Source of the DNA: Escherichia phage vB_EcoM_G53
Sequence record: MK327943.1
DNA: 64,000 nt
Direction: 5' to 3' (one strand)
Below, one piece after another: positions 1,361-10,819 of this stretch; positions within the stretch are counted from its first letter, which is position 1; each line of letters begins with the position of its first letter. The translations under genes were made by a program, and so were the position numbers. The notes beneath the pieces are model-generated. The model was not told the origin of the DNA. It did no database searches and saw nothing but the letters and a program-made list of their open reading frames with translations.

Positions 1361-2173
1361 ATGATCAAAGAACAACTTTTGAAAGAAGCTCAGAACATCG
1401 AGACTTCAGTTGCTCTTAATAGTGTTTTCGAATCAGTAGAACTGTCTCCGGACGTTAAAGCTAATTTCAGCACTGTATTCGAAGCCACCGTTAAGCAGGA
1501 AGCAGTCAAACTGGCTGAATCTCATATCAAAGCCATCGCCGAAAAAGCCGAAGAAGAAGTTGAAAAGGCTAAAGAAGATGCTGAAGAGAAAGCTGATAAA
1601 AAATTGGCTGAACAAGCTTCTAAATTCCTAGACCATCTTGCAAAAGAATGGCTCGCAGAAAACCAAATCGCAGTTGATAAAGGCATTAAAGCTGATTTGT
1701 TCGAATCCATGCTTGGTGGTCTGAAAGAACTGTTTGTTGAACATAACGTTGTTGTTCCAGAAGAATCTGTAGATGTTGTAGCAGAAATGGAAGAAGAGCT
1801 GGCCGAACATAAAGAAGAAACCGCTCGTTTGTTCGAAGAAGTTACCAAACGTGATGCATATATCAATTACGTTCAGCGTGAAACCGCTATTAATGAAAGC
1901 GTAAAAGACCTGACTGAATCTCAGAAAGAAAAAGTTATTGGCCTGGTTGAAGGTATGGATTATTCTGACGCATTTGGTACTAAGTTAACTGCTATTGTAG
2001 AAATGGTTAAAGGTTCTACTAAAGAAGAAGCCGCTATTACCGAAAGTATAAATACAGTTGACAATGACGCTGCCGGTCTTAATTTTGTTGCCGAAGCAGT
2101 TGACACTACCACAACTCAGGTAGAACAGAATTCTAATGTAAGTTTATATGCGAAAGTCGCATCTCGTTTCTAA
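1361..2173 (+). CDS. 22: Prohead core scaffold protein gp22
   Basis: 270 aa, acidic/helical, preceded by TATAAATA late promoter; T4 gp22 is ~269 aa. Confidence 0.9.
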   Translation: MIKEQLLKEAQNIETSVALNSVFESVELSPDVKANFSTVFEATVKQEAVKLAESHIKAIAEKAEEEVEKAKEDAEEKADKKLAEQASKFLDHLAKEWLAENQIAVDKGIKADLFESMLGGLKELFVEHNVVVPEESVDVVAEMEEELAEHKEETARLFEEVTKRDAYINYVQRETAINESVKDLTESQKEKVIGLVEGMDYSDAFGTKLTAIVEMVKGSTKEEAAITESINTVDNDAAGLNFVAEAVDTTTTQVEQNSNVSLYAKVASRF

Positions 2174-2190
2174 TTTAAAGGTTAACACAA

Positions 2191-3759
2191 ATGACTACTA
2201 TCAAAACTAAAGCTCAGCTCGTAGACAAATGGAAAGAACTGCTGGAAGGTGAAGGCCTGCCGGAAATCGCTAATAGCAAGCAGGCTATTATCGCTAAAAT
2301 CTTCGAAAACCAGGAAAAAGATTTCGAAGTATCCCCTGAATATAAAGACGAGAAAATCGCTCAGGCATTTGGTTCTTTCTTGACCGAAGCTGAAATTGGT
2401 GGTGACCATGGTTATAATGCTCAGAACATCGCAGCAGGTCAAACCTCTGGTGCAGTAACCCAAATTGGGCCGGCAGTTATGGGTATGGTTCGTCGTGCTA
2501 TTCCTAATCTGATCGCCTTTGATATTTGTGGTGTTCAGCCTATGAACAGCCCGACCGGTCAGGTATTTGCTCTCCGTGCAGTATATGGTAAAGACCCTAT
2601 CGCTGCTGGCGCTAAAGAAGCTTTCCATCCGATGTATGCCCCAGACGCGATGTTCTCTGGTCAGGGTGCTGCTAAGAAATTCCCAGCTCTGGCTGCTGAC
2701 ACTACTACTGTTGTAGGTGATATCTATACTCACTTCTTCCAAGAAACTGGTACTGTATATCTGCAAGCTTCTGCTATCGTAACACTTGATTCTGGTGCAA
2801 CTGATGCAGCTAAATTAGATGCAGAAGTTAAGAAACAAATGGAAGCTGGTGCACTGGTAGAAATCGCTGAAGGTATGGCTACTTCTATCGCTGAACTCCA
2901 GGAAGGTTTCAACGGTTCTACCGATAACCCATGGAATGAAATGGGCTTCCGTATCGACAAACAAGTTATTGAAGCTAAATCTCGTCAGCTGAAAGCAGCT
3001 TACTCCATAGAATTGGCACAAGACCTCCGTGCAGTACACGGTATGGATGCTGATGCTGAACTGAGCGGTATTCTGGCTACAGAAATTATGCTAGAAATCA
3101 ACCGTGAAGTTGTTGATTGGATTAACTACTCTGCACAGGTTGGTAAATCTGGTATGACCCTGACTCCGGGTTCTAAAGCTGGTGTATTTGACTTCCAGGA
3201 CCCGATTGATATCCGTGGTGCTCGTTGGGCCGGTGAAAGCTTTAAATCTCTGTTGTTCCAGATTGATAAAGAAGCAGTTGAAATTGCTCGTCAAACCGGT
3301 CGTGGTGAAGGTAACTTCATTATCGCTTCCCGTAACGTAGTTAACGTACTGGCTTCAGTTGATACTGGTATTTCTTACGCTGCACAGGGTCTGGCTTCTG
3401 GTTTTAATACCGACACTACTAAGTCTGTATTTGCCGGTGTACTTGGTGGTAAATACCGCGTATACATCGACCAGTATGCTAAACAGGATTACTTCACCGT
3501 TGGTTACAAAGGCGCTAACGAAATGGATGCAGGTATTTACTATGCTCCTTACGTTGCACTTACCCCACTGCGTGGTTCCGATCCTAAGAACTTCCAGCCG
3601 GTAATGGGCTTTAAAACTCGTTATGGTATCGGTGTTAACCCGTTTGCTGAAAGTTCCCTGCAGGCTCCAGGTGCTCGCATCCAGTCCGGTATGCCGTCTA
3701 TCCTGAACAGCCTTGGTAAGAATGCTTACTTCCGCCGTGTATATGTAAAAGGCATCTAA
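2191..3759 (+). CDS. 23: Major capsid protein gp23
   Basis: 522 aa, near-identical to recalled T4 gp23 (521 aa) over its whole length. Confidence 0.98.
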   Translation: MTTIKTKAQLVDKWKELLEGEGLPEIANSKQAIIAKIFENQEKDFEVSPEYKDEKIAQAFGSFLTEAEIGGDHGYNAQNIAAGQTSGAVTQIGPAVMGMVRRAIPNLIAFDICGVQPMNSPTGQVFALRAVYGKDPIAAGAKEAFHPMYAPDAMFSGQGAAKKFPALAADTTTVVGDIYTHFFQETGTVYLQASAIVTLDSGATDAAKLDAEVKKQMEAGALVEIAEGMATSIAELQEGFNGSTDNPWNEMGFRIDKQVIEAKSRQLKAAYSIELAQDLRAVHGMDADAELSGILATEIMLEINREVVDWINYSAQVGKSGMTLTPGSKAGVFDFQDPIDIRGARWAGESFKSLLFQIDKEAVEIARQTGRGEGNFIIASRNVVNVLASVDTGISYAAQGLASGFNTDTTKSVFAGVLGGKYRVYIDQYAKQDYFTVGYKGANEMDAGIYYAPYVALTPLRGSDPKNFQPVMGFKTRYGIGVNPFAESSLQAPGARIQSGMPSILNSLGKNAYFRRVYVKGI

Positions 3760-6613: not shown

Positions 6614-6865
6614 TTAGAACTTGATTTCTATCCAATGACCATCACGCTGGTCGTGATTAATTTTGTACTGAAAGCCATTATCACGAAGCCATTGACCGAC
6701 TTGTTCAGTTATAGTTAAATCGTTCTTTGACGGGTAGTACGTGAATTGTGTCTGGCCTTTATCAGCGGCTTTCTCTGCCATCACAGAGAAGTTAGTAATA
6801 AAATCACTCAACAAATTAGCTTTAGTGGCCAGTGCCCTTTCTCTTAATTCCTGTGCAAAACTCAT
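6614..6865 (-). CDS. Hypothetical protein (24.2-like by position)
   Basis: 83-aa ORF downstream of rnlB cluster, T4 synteny. Confidence 0.6.
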   Translation of the reverse strand: MSFAQELRERALATKANLLSDFITNFSVMAEKAADKGQTQFTYYPSKNDLTITEQVGQWLRDNGFQYKINHDQRDGHWIEIKF

Positions 6866-7062
6866 TTCTTCACCTTTTTGTTAATCAAACGTTTACGGTA
6901 TACAACTTTTTCTTTTGCTTTAAACTTTGACCGAGCTGTCTCGGCTTTAGTCCATAGTAATCCAACTTCTTTAGGTTGTAAACCAATTTTTTGAGCAATT
7001 TCTACGAATGAAAATCCCGCCTCATGTAATGTATAAACTTCAACTTCAGCTCTCATAATCAA
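6862..7062 (-). CDS. Hypothetical small basic protein (24.3-like by position)
   Basis: 66-aa ORF, 4-nt overlap with downstream ORF. Confidence 0.55.
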   Translation of the reverse strand: MIMRAEVEVYTLHEAGFSFVEIAQKIGLQPKEVGLLWTKAETARSKFKAKEKVVYRKRLINKKVKK

Positions 7063-7137
7063 TCCCGTATTATTTGGTTTGTGCCATTATATACATCAAT
7101 CTCAAGTTGTGTTTTGTATGCTTTAAAAACGAAGAAA

Positions 7138-7151
7138 GGGGCCGAAGCCCC
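7138..7151 (-). terminator. Terminator hairpin after hoc
   Basis: GGGGC-CGAA-GCCCC followed by T-rich tract on minus strand. Confidence 0.55.
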
Positions 7152-7157
7152 TTACGA

Positions 7158-8576
7158 TTATGGATATGTATAGATGATACCAGTTTCCAAAGCAGTTTTA
7201 TGGATGATGTATCCATTACGTGATTCTTGAACATCAACTTCCGGATAGTCTTTCATCATCTTCTGAAGAGTGTAACGATGCAGGTAGTATTTACTATCTG
7301 GATCTTCAGTTTTCCAATCTTTACCTTCTTCAGTCATTTTTTGGATTTCATCCATAACCCACCATCCGCACCAGATGTAAGCTGAAGTACGATGTGGAAG
7401 AGGATGAACATAAGGTAATTCACCTTCTGGTTCCGGAGCAACTTTATCAGTTACCTGAACTTGACCTTCTGCTGTAATAGTTTTGCTATCGTAATCAGTT
7501 GCAGTAATAGTTGCAGTAACTTCAATAGTTTGACTTCCAATAGATGAGGTATCAACGGTATATACATTAGTTGACCCTTCTACAGGAGAAGAATCTTTCT
7601 TCCATGAATACTCGATTTGCGCTTCTTCTGGAGCATCAGTGACATTAGCGGTAAATGTAGCCGAAGCATCTTGCTGAACGTTAATAGAAGGAGGAGTCAA
7701 TGTAACCCGTGGATTCATTGTCTTCTTATTAACCGTTAATGATACTTCATTCGAAGTAACTTCCTTTGCATCATAATCTGTCGCGGTTACTTGGGCTACA
7801 CATTTAATTCTTTTTACTCCACTTGTAGTCGGAGTATAGCTAAATGTAGAGTTAGTTTCTCCACCAACCTGTGAATCATCTACATACCACTGATACGTAG
7901 CAGACGCTCCAACCGGTTGAGAAGCTAAGGCAGCAGTAAATTGAACTGGGGTTCCAATTACTCCGGCTGAAGGACTATTGGGAGTTACTGCCAACGTAGT
8001 TGTCTGTGTCTTTTTATTAACAGTCAGTGACACTTCATTAGAAGTAACGCTTAGTGCGTCATAATCTGTTGCGGTTACTTGAGCCACACACTTAATTCTT
8101 TTTACCCCGCTTTCGGCAGGAGTGTAATTGAACGTAGCGTTAGTTGCTTCGCCAACAGGAGAATCGTCTACATACCATTGATAAGTAGCGTTTGCGCCTG
8201 ATGGCTGCGAAGCTAAAGCGGCGGTAAATTCAATAGCTGTTCCTATTACTCCAGCGTCAGGGCTATTAGGAGTTATAGCCAGAGTAGTTGTCTGAGTTTT
8301 ATTTTTAACTGTGATAGTTGCAGTAGCTTCTGCTGTTTCAGCTTCAGCGTCTGGAACTGTATTTGCTGCAACTACTTTAATAGTCTTTTGACCGGCAGGT
8401 CCTTTTAGTACATAACTAAAAGTTGCTTCAGCTCCATCTTGTGGAACATCATCCACAGTCCAAGCATATGTAATAGTTCCACCTTCAGCCTGACCACTAG
8501 GTGTGGCAGTAAACTGCTGGGTCTGTCCTATAACTCCAGTAGGTGTTTTAGGAGTTATATTAACTGTAAAAGCCAT
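7158..8576 (-). CDS. hoc: Hoc, highly immunogenic outer capsid protein with four Ig-like domains
   Basis: 472 aa, Ig-like repeats with YQWYVDD motifs, position hoc-inh; T4 Hoc is 376 aa; contains 96-aa internal tandem repeat. Confidence 0.85.
   Translation of the reverse strand: MAFTVNITPKTPTGVIGQTQQFTATPSGQAEGGTITYAWTVDDVPQDGAEATFSYVLKGPAGQKTIKVVAANTVPDAEAETAEATATITVKNKTQTTTLAITPNSPDAGVIGTAIEFTAALASQPSGANATYQWYVDDSPVGEATNATFNYTPAESGVKRIKCVAQVTATDYDALSVTSNEVSLTVNKKTQTTTLAVTPNSPSAGVIGTPVQFTAALASQPVGASATYQWYVDDSQVGGETNSTFSYTPTTSGVKRIKCVAQVTATDYDAKEVTSNEVSLTVNKKTMNPRVTLTPPSINVQQDASATFTANVTDAPEEAQIEYSWKKDSSPVEGSTNVYTVDTSSIGSQTIEVTATITATDYDSKTITAEGQVQVTDKVAPEPEGELPYVHPLPHRTSAYIWCGWWVMDEIQKMTEEGKDWKTEDPDSKYYLHRYTLQKMMKDYPEVDVQESRNGYIIHKTALETGIIYTYP
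7725..8300. repeat. Tandem ~288-bp repeat (2 copies) encoding duplicated Ig-like domain within hoc
   Basis: Protein residues 93-188 and 189-284 are ~85-90% identical (KTQTTTLA.TPNSP...SLTVNKKT). Confidence 0.85.
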
Positions 8577-8585
8577 AAGCTATCC

Positions 8586-9254
8586 TTATTTTAATGTTAT
8601 GAAAGAAGAATTACGAGTTTCACGAATTAGAACTGATCCATCGCGATTAATATAATAAATTAAGCTAAATAATGTTTGGTGAGCAGAAGCATGTACAAAA
8701 CTAGTTGGGCGAGATTTCCAATCTGGGGTTTCGGCTATCCATTGATAAATCCACCAAGGAACAGTAACATATCCTGGGGCTTTGCCTAATTTAATTAGTG
8801 TAGGACTAAAATTTTCAGGCAGAACAAATTTTACTTCTTTATTTACCTCTGGTTCAGGCTCTTTTTCAGATTCAACAACCTGAGTAATTGCTTCTTCGAA
8901 TTTATCATGGCTGAATTCTTTTTCTTGTTCGACAACTTCTAATACTTCAACTTGTTCTGTTGGAGAATCAAACAACAGAATAGCTTCTTCTTTAACTTCT
9001 TCGTTGGTGAAATTAACACCGTCCACATCATCTGCGGCAGTAATTAAATCAGTGATAGATAATCCATCAGTTTCAGGTAATGGTTCATCAGCCAGTGCGT
9101 TAAGAGCTTCTTCGATATCAACAACAATATTATCGAATGATTTTGTTTTCTTAACACTAATGCCAAATTGTTTCGCATATTCGAACAGTTTAGCTTTGGC
9201 TTCCTTTTTATCGGAAAGAGCACGTAACTCTTCAATATAGTCTTTATCGATCAT
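8586..9254 (-). CDS. inh: Inh, inhibitor of prohead protease
   Basis: 222 aa, position between hoc and uvsW, size matches T4 Inh. Confidence 0.75.
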   Translation of the reverse strand: MIDKDYIEELRALSDKKEAKAKLFEYAKQFGISVKKTKSFDNIVVDIEEALNALADEPLPETDGLSITDLITAADDVDGVNFTNEEVKEEAILLFDSPTEQVEVLEVVEQEKEFSHDKFEEAITQVVESEKEPEPEVNKEVKFVLPENFSPTLIKLGKAPGYVTVPWWIYQWIAETPDWKSRPTSFVHASAHQTLFSLIYYINRDGSVLIRETRNSSFITLK

Positions 9255-9267
9255 AGTATTTCCTCAT

Positions 9268-9275
9268 TATAAATA
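9268..9275 (+). promoter_or_regulatory. T4-type late promoter TATAAATA (uvsW)
   Basis: Exact motif 30 nt upstream of uvsW start. Confidence 0.55.
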
Positions 9276-9304
9276 TAACTATATTTATTACATGGTAATT
9301 TGAC

Positions 9305-10819
9305 ATGACTGACATTAAAGTACATTTTCATGATTTTAGTCACGTTCGCATTGAATGCGACGAAAGTACGTTTTACGAACTTCGTGACTTTTTTAGCTTT
9401 GAAGCTGACGGGTATAAATTTAACCCGCGTTACAAATATGGGAACTGGGATGGTAGAATTCGTCTTTTAGATTACAACCGTTTGTTACCATATGGACTTG
9501 TAGGACAAATAAAAAAGTTCTGTAGCAATATGAGTTATTCTGTATGGATTGACCCTAAAATCTTTGAGACCGAAGACCTTACCAGAGAAGATTTTGACGC
9601 ATGGCTTTCTAAACAAGAAATTTATTCGGGCAACTCCAAAATCGAACCACATTGGTATCAAAAAGATGCAGTATATGAAGGACTAGTTAATCGTCGTCGA
9701 ATTTTAAACCTTCCGACATCAGCAGGTAAATCACTAATCCAAGCACTTTTAGCTCGATATTATCTAGAGAACTATGAAGGTAAAATTCTCATTATCGTCC
9801 CTACAACAGCATTGACAACCCAGATGGCTAATGATTTTGTTGATTATCGCTTGTTTAGTCATTCGATGATTAAGAAAATTGGCGGTGGTGCTGATAAAGC
9901 AGACAAATCTAAAAACGACGCTCCAATTATTGTTGGCACATGGCAAACGGTAGTTAAGCAGCCTAAAGAATGGTTCTCTCAGTTCGGTATGATGATGAAC
10001 GATGAATGCCACTTAGCAACAGGCAAAAGTATTTCTTCAATCATCTCAGGATTAAATAATTGCATGTTTAAATTCGGTTTATCCGGCTCATTAAGAGACG
10101 GAAAAGCCAATGTAATGCAGTATGTAGGCATGTTCGGCGAAATCTTCCGTCCTGTTAGCACGTCTAAATTAATGGAAGATGGACAGGTAACTGAGCTTAA
10201 GATTAATAGTATTTTCCTTCGTTATCCGGACGAATTCACCGTTAAATTAAAAGGTAAAACATACCAAGAAGAAGTTAAAATTATTACCGGACTAAAACGT
10301 CGTACAAAGTGGATTGCTCAACTTTCGGTCAAATTGGCTAAGAAAGACGAGAACGCCTTTGTAATGTTTAAACACGTTACACACGGTAAAGAAATATTTG
10401 AAGCTATTAAAGAGCTTGGATACGAAAAAGTTTATTACGTATCAGGTGAAGTTGATACTGAAACACGTAACGCGCTTAAAGTCATGGCAGAAAATGGTAA
10501 AGGCATTATTATTGTCGCATCATATGGAGTATTCTCTACTGGTATTTCAGTCAAGAATCTTCATCATGTTATTTTTGCCCATGGTGTTAAATCAAAAATT
10601 ATCGTACTTCAAACCGTAGGTCGTGTGCTTCGTAAGCACGGTTCTAAAGCTGTTGCTACAGTTTGGGATCTCATAGATGACGCAGGTGTAAAACCTAAAT
10701 CATTAAATACTAAAAAGAAGTATACTCATCTTAATTACTTGTTAAAACACGGTATTGATCGTATCCAACGTTACGCTGATGAGAAATTTAACTATGTAAT
10801 GAAAACAATTAATTTATAA
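9305..10819 (+). CDS. uvsW: UvsW RNA-DNA and DNA-DNA helicase
   Basis: 504 aa; strong match to recalled T4 UvsW incl. Walker A (LPTSAGKS) and DECH box. Confidence 0.96.
   Translation: MTDIKVHFHDFSHVRIECDESTFYELRDFFSFEADGYKFNPRYKYGNWDGRIRLLDYNRLLPYGLVGQIKKFCSNMSYSVWIDPKIFETEDLTREDFDAWLSKQEIYSGNSKIEPHWYQKDAVYEGLVNRRRILNLPTSAGKSLIQALLARYYLENYEGKILIIVPTTALTTQMANDFVDYRLFSHSMIKKIGGGADKADKSKNDAPIIVGTWQTVVKQPKEWFSQFGMMMNDECHLATGKSISSIISGLNNCMFKFGLSGSLRDGKANVMQYVGMFGEIFRPVSTSKLMEDGQVTELKINSIFLRYPDEFTVKLKGKTYQEEVKIITGLKRRTKWIAQLSVKLAKKDENAFVMFKHVTHGKEIFEAIKELGYEKVYYVSGEVDTETRNALKVMAENGKGIIIVASYGVFSTGISVKNLHHVIFAHGVKSKIIVLQTVGRVLRKHGSKAVATVWDLIDDAGVKPKSLNTKKKYTHLNYLLKHGIDRIQRYADEKFNYVMKTINL

Follow-up and report, generated by a model that had tools for sequence, protein, structure and literature searches.

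The hoc gene of Escherichia phage vB_EcoM_G53 carries domain 2 as two diverged tandem modules, a form apparently common and long established among T-even phages

The window analysed here is a stretch of 64,000 nucleotides from Escherichia phage vB_EcoM_G53 (sequence record MK327943.1), a Mosigvirus of the mar005p1 group that is 98.1-98.3% identical over 25 kb to the phages F31, APCEc01, mar005P1 and JK42. On the minus strand it contains an intact hoc open reading frame, which begins 9 nt downstream of the 222-aa inh frame (Table 1). The order inh-hoc-24.3/24.2-rnlB, beside uvsW, is as annotated in moskry, APCEc01, T4 and RB69, and T4 hoc likewise follows inh and is itself followed by gene 24.2 and rnlB; the window gene therefore lies where a member of the Hoc family is expected, with inh on its upstream side, 24.3/24.2 and rnlB on its downstream side, and uvsW nearby. 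A terminator is annotated in the record of phage fPS-65 at the position that matches the hairpin listed in Table 1. The T4 late promoter sequence TATAAATA has no exact match upstream of inh-hoc on the minus strand, and the sole exact match nearby, at 9268-9275 on the plus strand, points to uvsW.

Table 1. Features of the hoc locus, in window coordinates; hoc and its parts are listed in the direction of transcription.
Feature	Position	Strand	Description and source
uvsW	9305..10819	+	504-aa helicase gene, faced by inh; ORF list
inh	8586..9254	-	Inhibitor of prohead protease gp21, 222 aa; upstream neighbour that fixes the synteny; ORF list and annotation of moskry, APCEc01 and T4
Ribosome-binding site	8583..8587	-	AAGGA, 6 nt before the hoc ATG; shares nucleotides with the inh stop codon; read from the sequence
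hoc CDS	7158..8576	-	472 aa plus stop, intact ORF; head outer capsid (decoration) protein; ORF list and phmmer
Ig-like domain 1 (D1), aa 1-92	8301..8576	-	AlphaFold2 strands E4-E91, pLDDT about 85-94; aligns with T4 Hoc 1-92
Repeat copy A, aa 93-188	8013..8300	-	A-type domain-2 module, extra relative to T4; A clade; AlphaFold2 strands 99-187, pLDDT >90
Repeat copy B, aa 189-284	7725..8012	-	B-type domain-2 module, counterpart of T4 Hoc domain 2; B clade
Ig-like domain 3 (D3), aa 285-376	7449..7724	-	Pfam Ig_3 and I-set at 289-373; AlphaFold2 strands 290-376; aligns with T4 Hoc 189-280
Linker and C-terminal capsid-binding domain, aa 377-472, plus stop	7158..7448	-	Near-identical to T4 Hoc 281-376
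Hairpin	7126..7153	-	GC-rich AAGGGGC-TTCG-GCCCCTT followed by a T-run, terminator-like, 4 nt past the hoc stop; consensus scan
Small ORFs	6614-7062	-	ORF list

The predicted protein is exactly that deposited in GenBank for Escherichia phage vB_EcoM_G53 as a 'PKD domain protein' (QBO65327.1). A phmmer search of the PDB sequences matched it to T4 Hoc (5vf3_Z, 376 aa) with E=3e-219. In Pfam, the PKD family scored 43.1 bits against a cut-off of 23.5, its best stretch (PF00801) being residues 195-253 within copy B, and the Ig_2, PKD_3 and PKD_4 families likewise scored over their cut-offs. An AlphaFold2 model built on 30 two-module homologues (mean pLDDT 82.7) consists of four all-beta domains at approximately 1-91, 93-187, 189-283 and 285-376, most 10-residue blocks of this Ig-like region having a pLDDT of about 90 or higher, followed by a C-terminal domain that contains a helix and is modelled at low confidence (pLDDT 36-64). 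The top Foldseek matches in the PDB were rods of four Ig-like domains with E values of about 1e-13, namely region II of MpAFP (4p99), Dscam1 Ig1-4 and ICAM-5 D1-D4. The best of these, MpAFP region II, is a rod of four tandem beta-sandwich domains from a bacterial tandem-Ig adhesin; it is 11% identical to the window Hoc without a detectable sequence relationship, and as the biology differs the likeness is a structural analogy only. The model, the Pfam and Foldseek matches and the alignment to T4 Hoc agree on four Ig-like domains instead of three, as had been proposed when the DNA was read without database searches.

The residues through which Hoc binds the capsid are conserved among homologues: Tyr293, His295, Arg300, Trp309, Trp310, Asp313 and the Glu355-Ser-Arg-Asn-Gly359 loop in T4 (Fokine 2023, PMC10385173). 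All have their equivalents in the window protein at an offset of +96 (Y389, H391, R396, W405, W406, D409 and E451-S452-R453-N454-G455), and across 30 two-module Hoc sequences they vary little or not at all. With four predicted Ig-like domains and a predicted T4-type capsid-binding domain, the protein combines both characteristics of its family and the gene is assigned to hoc. Hoc of T4 is a monomer found at the centre of gp23 hexamers, with 155 copies per T4 head. Judging from the near-identity of its C-terminal domain to those of T4 and RB69, the window Hoc should bind through this domain at one per gp23 hexamer.

The single array that Tandem Repeats Finder reported in this region (score 681) spans 7719-8309; its period is 288 nt, repeated 2.1 times with 76% matches. 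A gapless repeat search gave two 288-nt copies offset by exactly 288 nt. The interval 7725-8300 is exactly copies A and B, a repeat that keeps the reading frame and greatly exceeds what chance would produce. The sequence-only reading had recognised here a 288-bp tandem repeat of residues 93-188 and 189-284, with coordinates that proved exact, and had set a Hoc of 472 aa against the 376 aa of T4, lengths that are borne out by the ORF list and the phmmer alignment. This alignment falls into two blocks, T4 residues 1-112 with query residues 1-112 and T4 residues 93-376 with query residues 189-472, and hence the window protein has one extra 96-aa module inserted in register. The D1, B-type domain 2, D3 and capsid-binding domain of T4 Hoc (376 aa; PDB 5VF3 and 8T1X; PMC10385173) are collinear with those of the window protein; lacking the A module, T4 Hoc has three Ig-like domains against the four of the window. 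Copy B is 92% identical at the nucleotide level to the T4 module and 96% identical to that of APCEc01. The evidence supports an architecture of D1-A-B-D3 plus the capsid-binding domain, in which the extra module is a tandem paralogue of domain 2.

The copies had also been described as near-identical, which the sequences do not bear out. Copies A and B share 80 of 96 residues (83%) but only 217 of 288 nucleotides (75%), leaving 71 differences; just 49 of the 96 third codon positions match (51%) and the longest identical run is 14 nt. By Nei-Gojobori estimates, used throughout for dS and dN/dS, the two copies are separated by a dS of 1.55 with a dN/dS of 0.08, and their synonymous divergence is near saturation; in eight other two-copy genes the same comparison gave dS 0.72-1.26 and dN/dS 0.09-0.19. 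Orthologous copies compared with those of the window differ less, with dS of at most 0.70 for A and 0.37 for B, and for the D1, D3 and C-terminal parts at most 0.62, mostly 0.2-0.4 and about 0.3 against T4. As the A-to-B divergence in the window exceeds every orthologous comparison, the two modules evidently separated before the T4-type hoc alleles in the sample last shared an ancestor. The event therefore cannot be called recent, as it had been; besides the dS of 1.55, the arrangement is common to two genera and not private to one lineage. The 16 residue differences between A and B (at 101, 107, 114-116, 126, 129, 140, 143-144, 147, 150, 154-155 and 175-176) fall mostly in loops or at strand edges according to DSSP of the AlphaFold2 model, and both modules appear to be preserved under purifying selection as folded Ig-like domains. 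Since the longest run shared by A and B is only 14 nt, recombination between the window's own two copies should be rare. Gene conversion was considered from the module edges, which are 83% and 79% identical compared with 74% in the middle of the module, a weak effect on which no conclusion is based.

A megablast search with hoc gave 656 matching phage records. The 40 best comprised 34 with two modules (1419-1420 bp), 6 with one module (1131 bp) and no partial matches, and 60 evenly spaced records comprised 20 with two modules, 27 with one and 13 that were partial; by this sample of 60, the long form is present in roughly one third of the matching records, or on the order of 200 genomes. Two-module hoc genes were found in Tequatrovirus (RB27, PP01, teqskov, SP1 and OES_C-2) and in Mosigvirus (moskry and F31). 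At the protein level, the 90% cluster of the window protein has 167 members, including RB30 Hoc (AAM52483.1, 472 aa), Sf23, slur02 and IME340, and the 120 best protein clusters were distributed by length as 79 of 376 aa, 29 of 472 aa, 9 of 567-570 aa and 3 of other lengths. The Hoc proteins of RB30, RB27, PP01, teqskov, moskry and F31 are likewise of 472 aa and D1-A-B-D3-C architecture, with modules in the same register as in the window; their genes are 88-97% identical to the window hoc, the proteins fall in one 90% cluster, and they differ from the window protein solely by allele-level substitutions. The window Hoc is thus recognised, on sequence comparison, as a common, long-established and already public allele, the long Hoc of T4-type phages. 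One outcome that had been named as fatal to a recent duplication, a four-domain Hoc as the ancestral common form, is largely what was found, with A plus B present in many Tequatrovirus and Mosigvirus, in the 167-member cluster, and in a comparable 471-aa form in RB69. Given the divergence and spread of the A-plus-B form, the sequence-only reading was right about an extra Ig-like domain and wrong about its recency and rarity.

For a comparison of modules, hoc DNA was taken from 20 phages. One module, in a protein of 376 aa, is present in T4, APCEc01, moha, LF82-41, RB18, slur07, fPS-65 and two IMG/VR contigs; nine genes have two modules (472 aa), UGKSEcP1 has three (568 aa) and slur14 has four (664 aa). 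The Hoc proteins of UGKSEcP1 and slur14 share the 96-aa module and register of the window, with an A-type module first, and differ in having one or two extra modules. A neighbour-joining tree of the 288-nt modules separated an A clade from a B clade, with a third, divergent module type inside the B clade (fPS-65, copy 3 of UGKSEcP1 and copy 4 of slur14), and the first module was of A type in all 11 multi-copy genes examined. Eighteen nucleotide sites, between module nt 62 and 287, tell the A and B modules apart in 8 or more of the 9 two-copy genes. The window has the A state at 18 of 18 in copy 1 and the B state at 18 of 18 in copy 2, and at 472 aa with 96-aa modules in register, A then B, its protein belongs to the two-module allele class of the RB30/RB27/PP01 type.

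The same diagnostic sites mark the single-copy genes of T4, APCEc01, moha, LF82-41 and L003 as pure B and that of L005 (IMG/VR) as pure A; towards its 3' end the T4 module has a small A-like patch (ALS). Two single-copy genes are A-to-B chimeras: slur07 changes type between nt 162 and 170, RB18 close to the 3' end. Chimeras of A 5' and B 3' parts are the expected product of an in-register unequal crossover between A and B; they are explicable too by ordinary recombination of A-type and B-type single-copy alleles, and collapse of the array is hence treated here as a presumed mechanism. Among the phages compared, no near-identical genome pair was found that differs solely by a clean 288-nt contraction. 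LF82-41 was considered as a clean contraction of a window-like gene and rejected; it has the A state at the first three sites at which the window copies differ and the B state thereafter, and these sites are non-diagnostic elsewhere. The 2-kb hoc span of KNP5, considered as a longer array, is actually a run of 990 N. In the literature searched, we found no description of a two-module Hoc, of module copy-number variation or of a 1-to-4 series; the series of one to four modules, with its apparent A and B lineages and chimeric single-copy forms, may therefore be one mildly new point.

Parts of hoc appear to have been exchanged between phages. APCEc01 and moha belong to the same species as the window phage, yet have a one-module, B-type hoc. 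Over 25 kb, APCEc01 and the window are 98.2% identical, against only 85% in D1 of hoc; for APCEc01 and moha the dS to the window is 0.36-0.39 in D1 and 0.04-0.11 in D3 and the C-terminus. A diverged D1 next to a close D3 and C-terminus suggests that the 5' part of hoc was replaced, not merely shortened. At the protein level the A module of the window hardly differs from its counterpart in the Tequatrovirus teqskov (dN 0.005). Identity to RB69, counted in 60-nt windows, is 98-100% across the final 240 nt of hoc, which encode the capsid-binding domain, and 42-72% further upstream; BLAST against RB69 hoc gave 98.9% over query nt 1147-1419. By these similarities, the part of the window hoc that has to fit the capsid matches the Mosigvirus background, and the Ig string is of T4-like type.

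RB69, the type phage of Mosigvirus, has a Hoc of 471 aa with four Ig-like modules and a C-terminal domain, like the window, and the two proteins are collinear over their full length with 58% identity and 3 gaps. The Ig domains of RB69 are nevertheless only about 40-59% identical to those of the window, and the identity between its two middle modules is 41%. The first of these is at an equal distance from the window's A module (51% identity) and its B module (54%), which would make the A/B split younger than the separation from the RB69 type, unless the copies were homogenised later. Hoc homologues in general carry strings of one to ten Ig-like domains, and Hoc of the Serratia phage Muldoon (1174 aa) likewise joins a variable Ig string to the conserved capsid-binding domain, though its modules and phage group differ from those of the window (PMC10385173). 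In another Tevenvirinae Hoc lineage from IMG/VR the lengths are 282, about 377 and 471-472 aa; one member (L007) has a doubled D3-type module whose adjacent copies are 79-80% identical, and the 282-aa Hoc of another (L012) has two Ig domains only.

Taken as a whole, the observations are probably best explained by a widespread and old hoc allele in which domain 2 exists as two diverged tandem paralogues, A then B. An in-frame duplication of 288 nt, preceding the last common ancestor of the T4-type hoc alleles sampled, would have produced the paralogues, and both copies would then have been retained by purifying selection as folded Ig-like domains. From the mosaic patterns, module number (1 to 4) has probably been altered via in-register unequal homologous recombination, and whole hoc segments have probably been swapped among co-infecting T-even phages, including between Tequatrovirus and Mosigvirus. 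The tree topology alone fits both an ancient duplication with losses and two old allelic classes joined in tandem. The latter history, which we consider unlikely, would derive the tandem from out-of-register recombination between diverged A-type and B-type single-copy alleles, the 75% identity then measuring how far the alleles had diverged rather than how old the tandem is. It draws on the existence of both pure A-type (L005 of IMG/VR) and pure B-type (T4, APCEc01) single-copy genes, on the 79 single-copy protein clusters, 46 of them A-like and 28 B-like at three diagnostic residues, and on the clear mobility of hoc segments between phages; a short TV(K/N)(N/K)KT motif common to the D1/D2 and D2/D3 linkers could also guide such a join. 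However, D1, D3 and the C-terminus are far less diverged (dS of at most 0.62, mostly 0.2-0.4) than A is from B, and the allelic classes would be needed at domain 2 alone. Paralogues co-inherited in one gene give a simpler account, A is always first in the 11 multi-copy genes examined, and the tandem would be old even under a fusion of alleles, because orthologous A copies are up to dS 0.70 from that of the window.

Two further explanations were considered. A recent in-situ duplication in the lineage of the window phage, with near-identical copies, is suggested by a repeat perfectly in register and in frame and by the 83% protein identity, which looks high by eye, but it is refuted by the DNA identity of 75%, the 51% of matching third positions and the dS of 1.55, and numerous phages from two genera have orthologous A and B copies, RB30 Hoc even falling in the same 90% cluster; we regard it as very improbable. 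An expansion of the repeat by the assembler is more improbable still. Repeats are prone to mis-assembly, and the KNP5 record has its 990-N gap exactly in the matching part of hoc, but copies that differ at 71 of 288 positions cannot stem from the same reads; the reading frame is unbroken, well over 50 independent genome records share the structure, and GenBank has an identical protein.

With the old tandem of paralogues as the preferred explanation, the consequences for the fibre may be considered from the literature on Hoc. The T4 Hoc fibre is 180 Å long, with one bound per hexamer (PMC10385173). In the BAM model (PMC9271167, PMC11150434, PMC11853027), the Ig-like domains of Hoc bind fucosylated mucin glycans, and a single change in domain 3 alters binding (PMC9271167). 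In phage PNJ-6 the binding site of Hoc is in domain 1, not domain 2 (PMC11150434), and in phage PNJ-9 residues S183-L184-T185 of domain 2 are required for binding (PMC11853027). An S-L-T motif is present in both modules of the window protein, at S183-L184-T185 and S279-L280-T281; this motif falls within the last beta-strand, where its role may be structural. On the T4 literature only, the window fibre would extend about one Ig domain beyond the 180 Å of T4 and would carry one more module of the kind implicated in binding to fucosylated mucin. The extra module thus plausibly lengthens the fibre by about one Ig domain and gives it a further potential binding unit, and a longer reach or altered binding is a reasonable suggestion. 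A wider proposal, which we advance tentatively and hold to be unlikely, is that the domain-2 array may be a locus for fibre length and avidity, with one to four modules changed by in-register recombination and traded among T-even phages, their number and A, B or C type being selected by surface or mucus, in the way that tandem Ig repeats adjust how far bacterial adhesins reach.

The long form of Hoc has a few hundred public examples, among which the window protein, with its exact GenBank match, matters little alone; the feature is real but ordinary. The three-Ig Hoc of T4 is not the default among T-even phages, and 376 aa is consequently a poor yardstick for anomalies. Natural versions of the fibre with 1, 2, 3 and 4 modules are available to work on mucus adherence or on Hoc as a display scaffold.

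The public annotation of hoc is inconsistent and sometimes wrong. Names in the databases vary among 'PKD domain protein', 'Hoc-like head decoration' and 'large head outer capsid protein', and long Hoc proteins have been wrongly named 'capsid vertex protein', 'baseplate wedge subunit' and 'endonuclease'. In the GenBank record of moskry, a repeat_region is already annotated across both modules.

T4-type Hoc proteins with three and four domain-2 modules (the 96-aa Ig-like unit) are encoded by UGKSEcP1 (568 aa) and slur14 (664 aa), respectively, thus extending the window and T4 forms into a 1-2-3-4 copy-number series of one unit. The closest genomes to window positions 1-25000, namely those of APCEc01, mar005P1, JK42 and FL18, are 98.1-98.2% identical to it; each aligns in two pieces and spans approximately 287-295 nt less in the record than in the query. 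For APCEc01 the shorter span is explained by a hoc with one module, and module number in Hoc is therefore polymorphic inside a single species, Mosigvirus mar005p1.

The RefSeq record of Shigella phage KNP5 (NC_055713.1) carries a run of 990 N within hoc. This run begins where domain 1 ends, and a CDS is annotated for the 3' 588 nt of the gene only; the assembly seems to have been broken by the module array.

Comparison with RB69 and T4 indicates that the window hoc is a mosaic of an RB69-like 3' end and a T4-like Ig-coding part. The RB69 gene is 98-100% identical to it across the final 240 nt, which encode the capsid-binding domain, but merely 42-72% identical in the Ig-coding part, where T4 hoc reaches 87%. 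From the comparison with RB69, the breakpoint lies close to the linker between D3 and the C-terminal domain.

A second Tevenvirinae Hoc lineage, with an N-terminus beginning MAYTV or MAYSV, was found in four IMG/VR contigs (L006, L007, L008 and L012) and has a length polymorphism of its own (282, 377 and 471-472 aa). The Hoc of L007 contains two neighbouring D3-type modules that are 79-80% identical to each other; here a domain other than the one doubled in the window has been duplicated independently.

Coordinates of the features discussed
Feature	Sequence	Position	Compared with
Capsid-binding-domain part of hoc	window	7158-7448	L039 (RB69) 458-1873
Ig-coding part of hoc	window	7449-8576	L039 (RB69) 458-1873
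12-nt tandem repeat, 2.3 copies	window	7491-7519	
Gap between inh and uvsW	window	9255-9304	
Late-promoter motif	window	9268-9275 (+)	
Four-module Hoc	L038 (slur14)	358-2352	
Three-module Hoc	L025 (UGKSEcP1)	1449-3155	
N run	L037 (KNP5)	833-1822	
Hoc with two D3-type modules	L007	1501-2916	

Within domain 3 of the window hoc there is also a short tandem repeat that codes for a portion of the ...TATITATDYDS... strand and has no apparent significance; the moskry and moha records annotate a 28-nt repeat_region similarly placed within hoc. In matched public records the 472-aa Hoc bears many different names, some of them clearly wrong: FP43 labels it 'baseplate wedge subunit', SP1 'capsid vertex protein', KarlGJung 'capsid whiskers protein' and one Shigella sonnei assembly 'endonuclease'. 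Upstream of hoc, inh and uvsW adjoin each other divergently, whereas in T4 the homing endonuclease gene segE, absent from the window, sits between them; the gap holds an exact match to the T4 late-promoter motif TATAAATA pointing toward uvsW.
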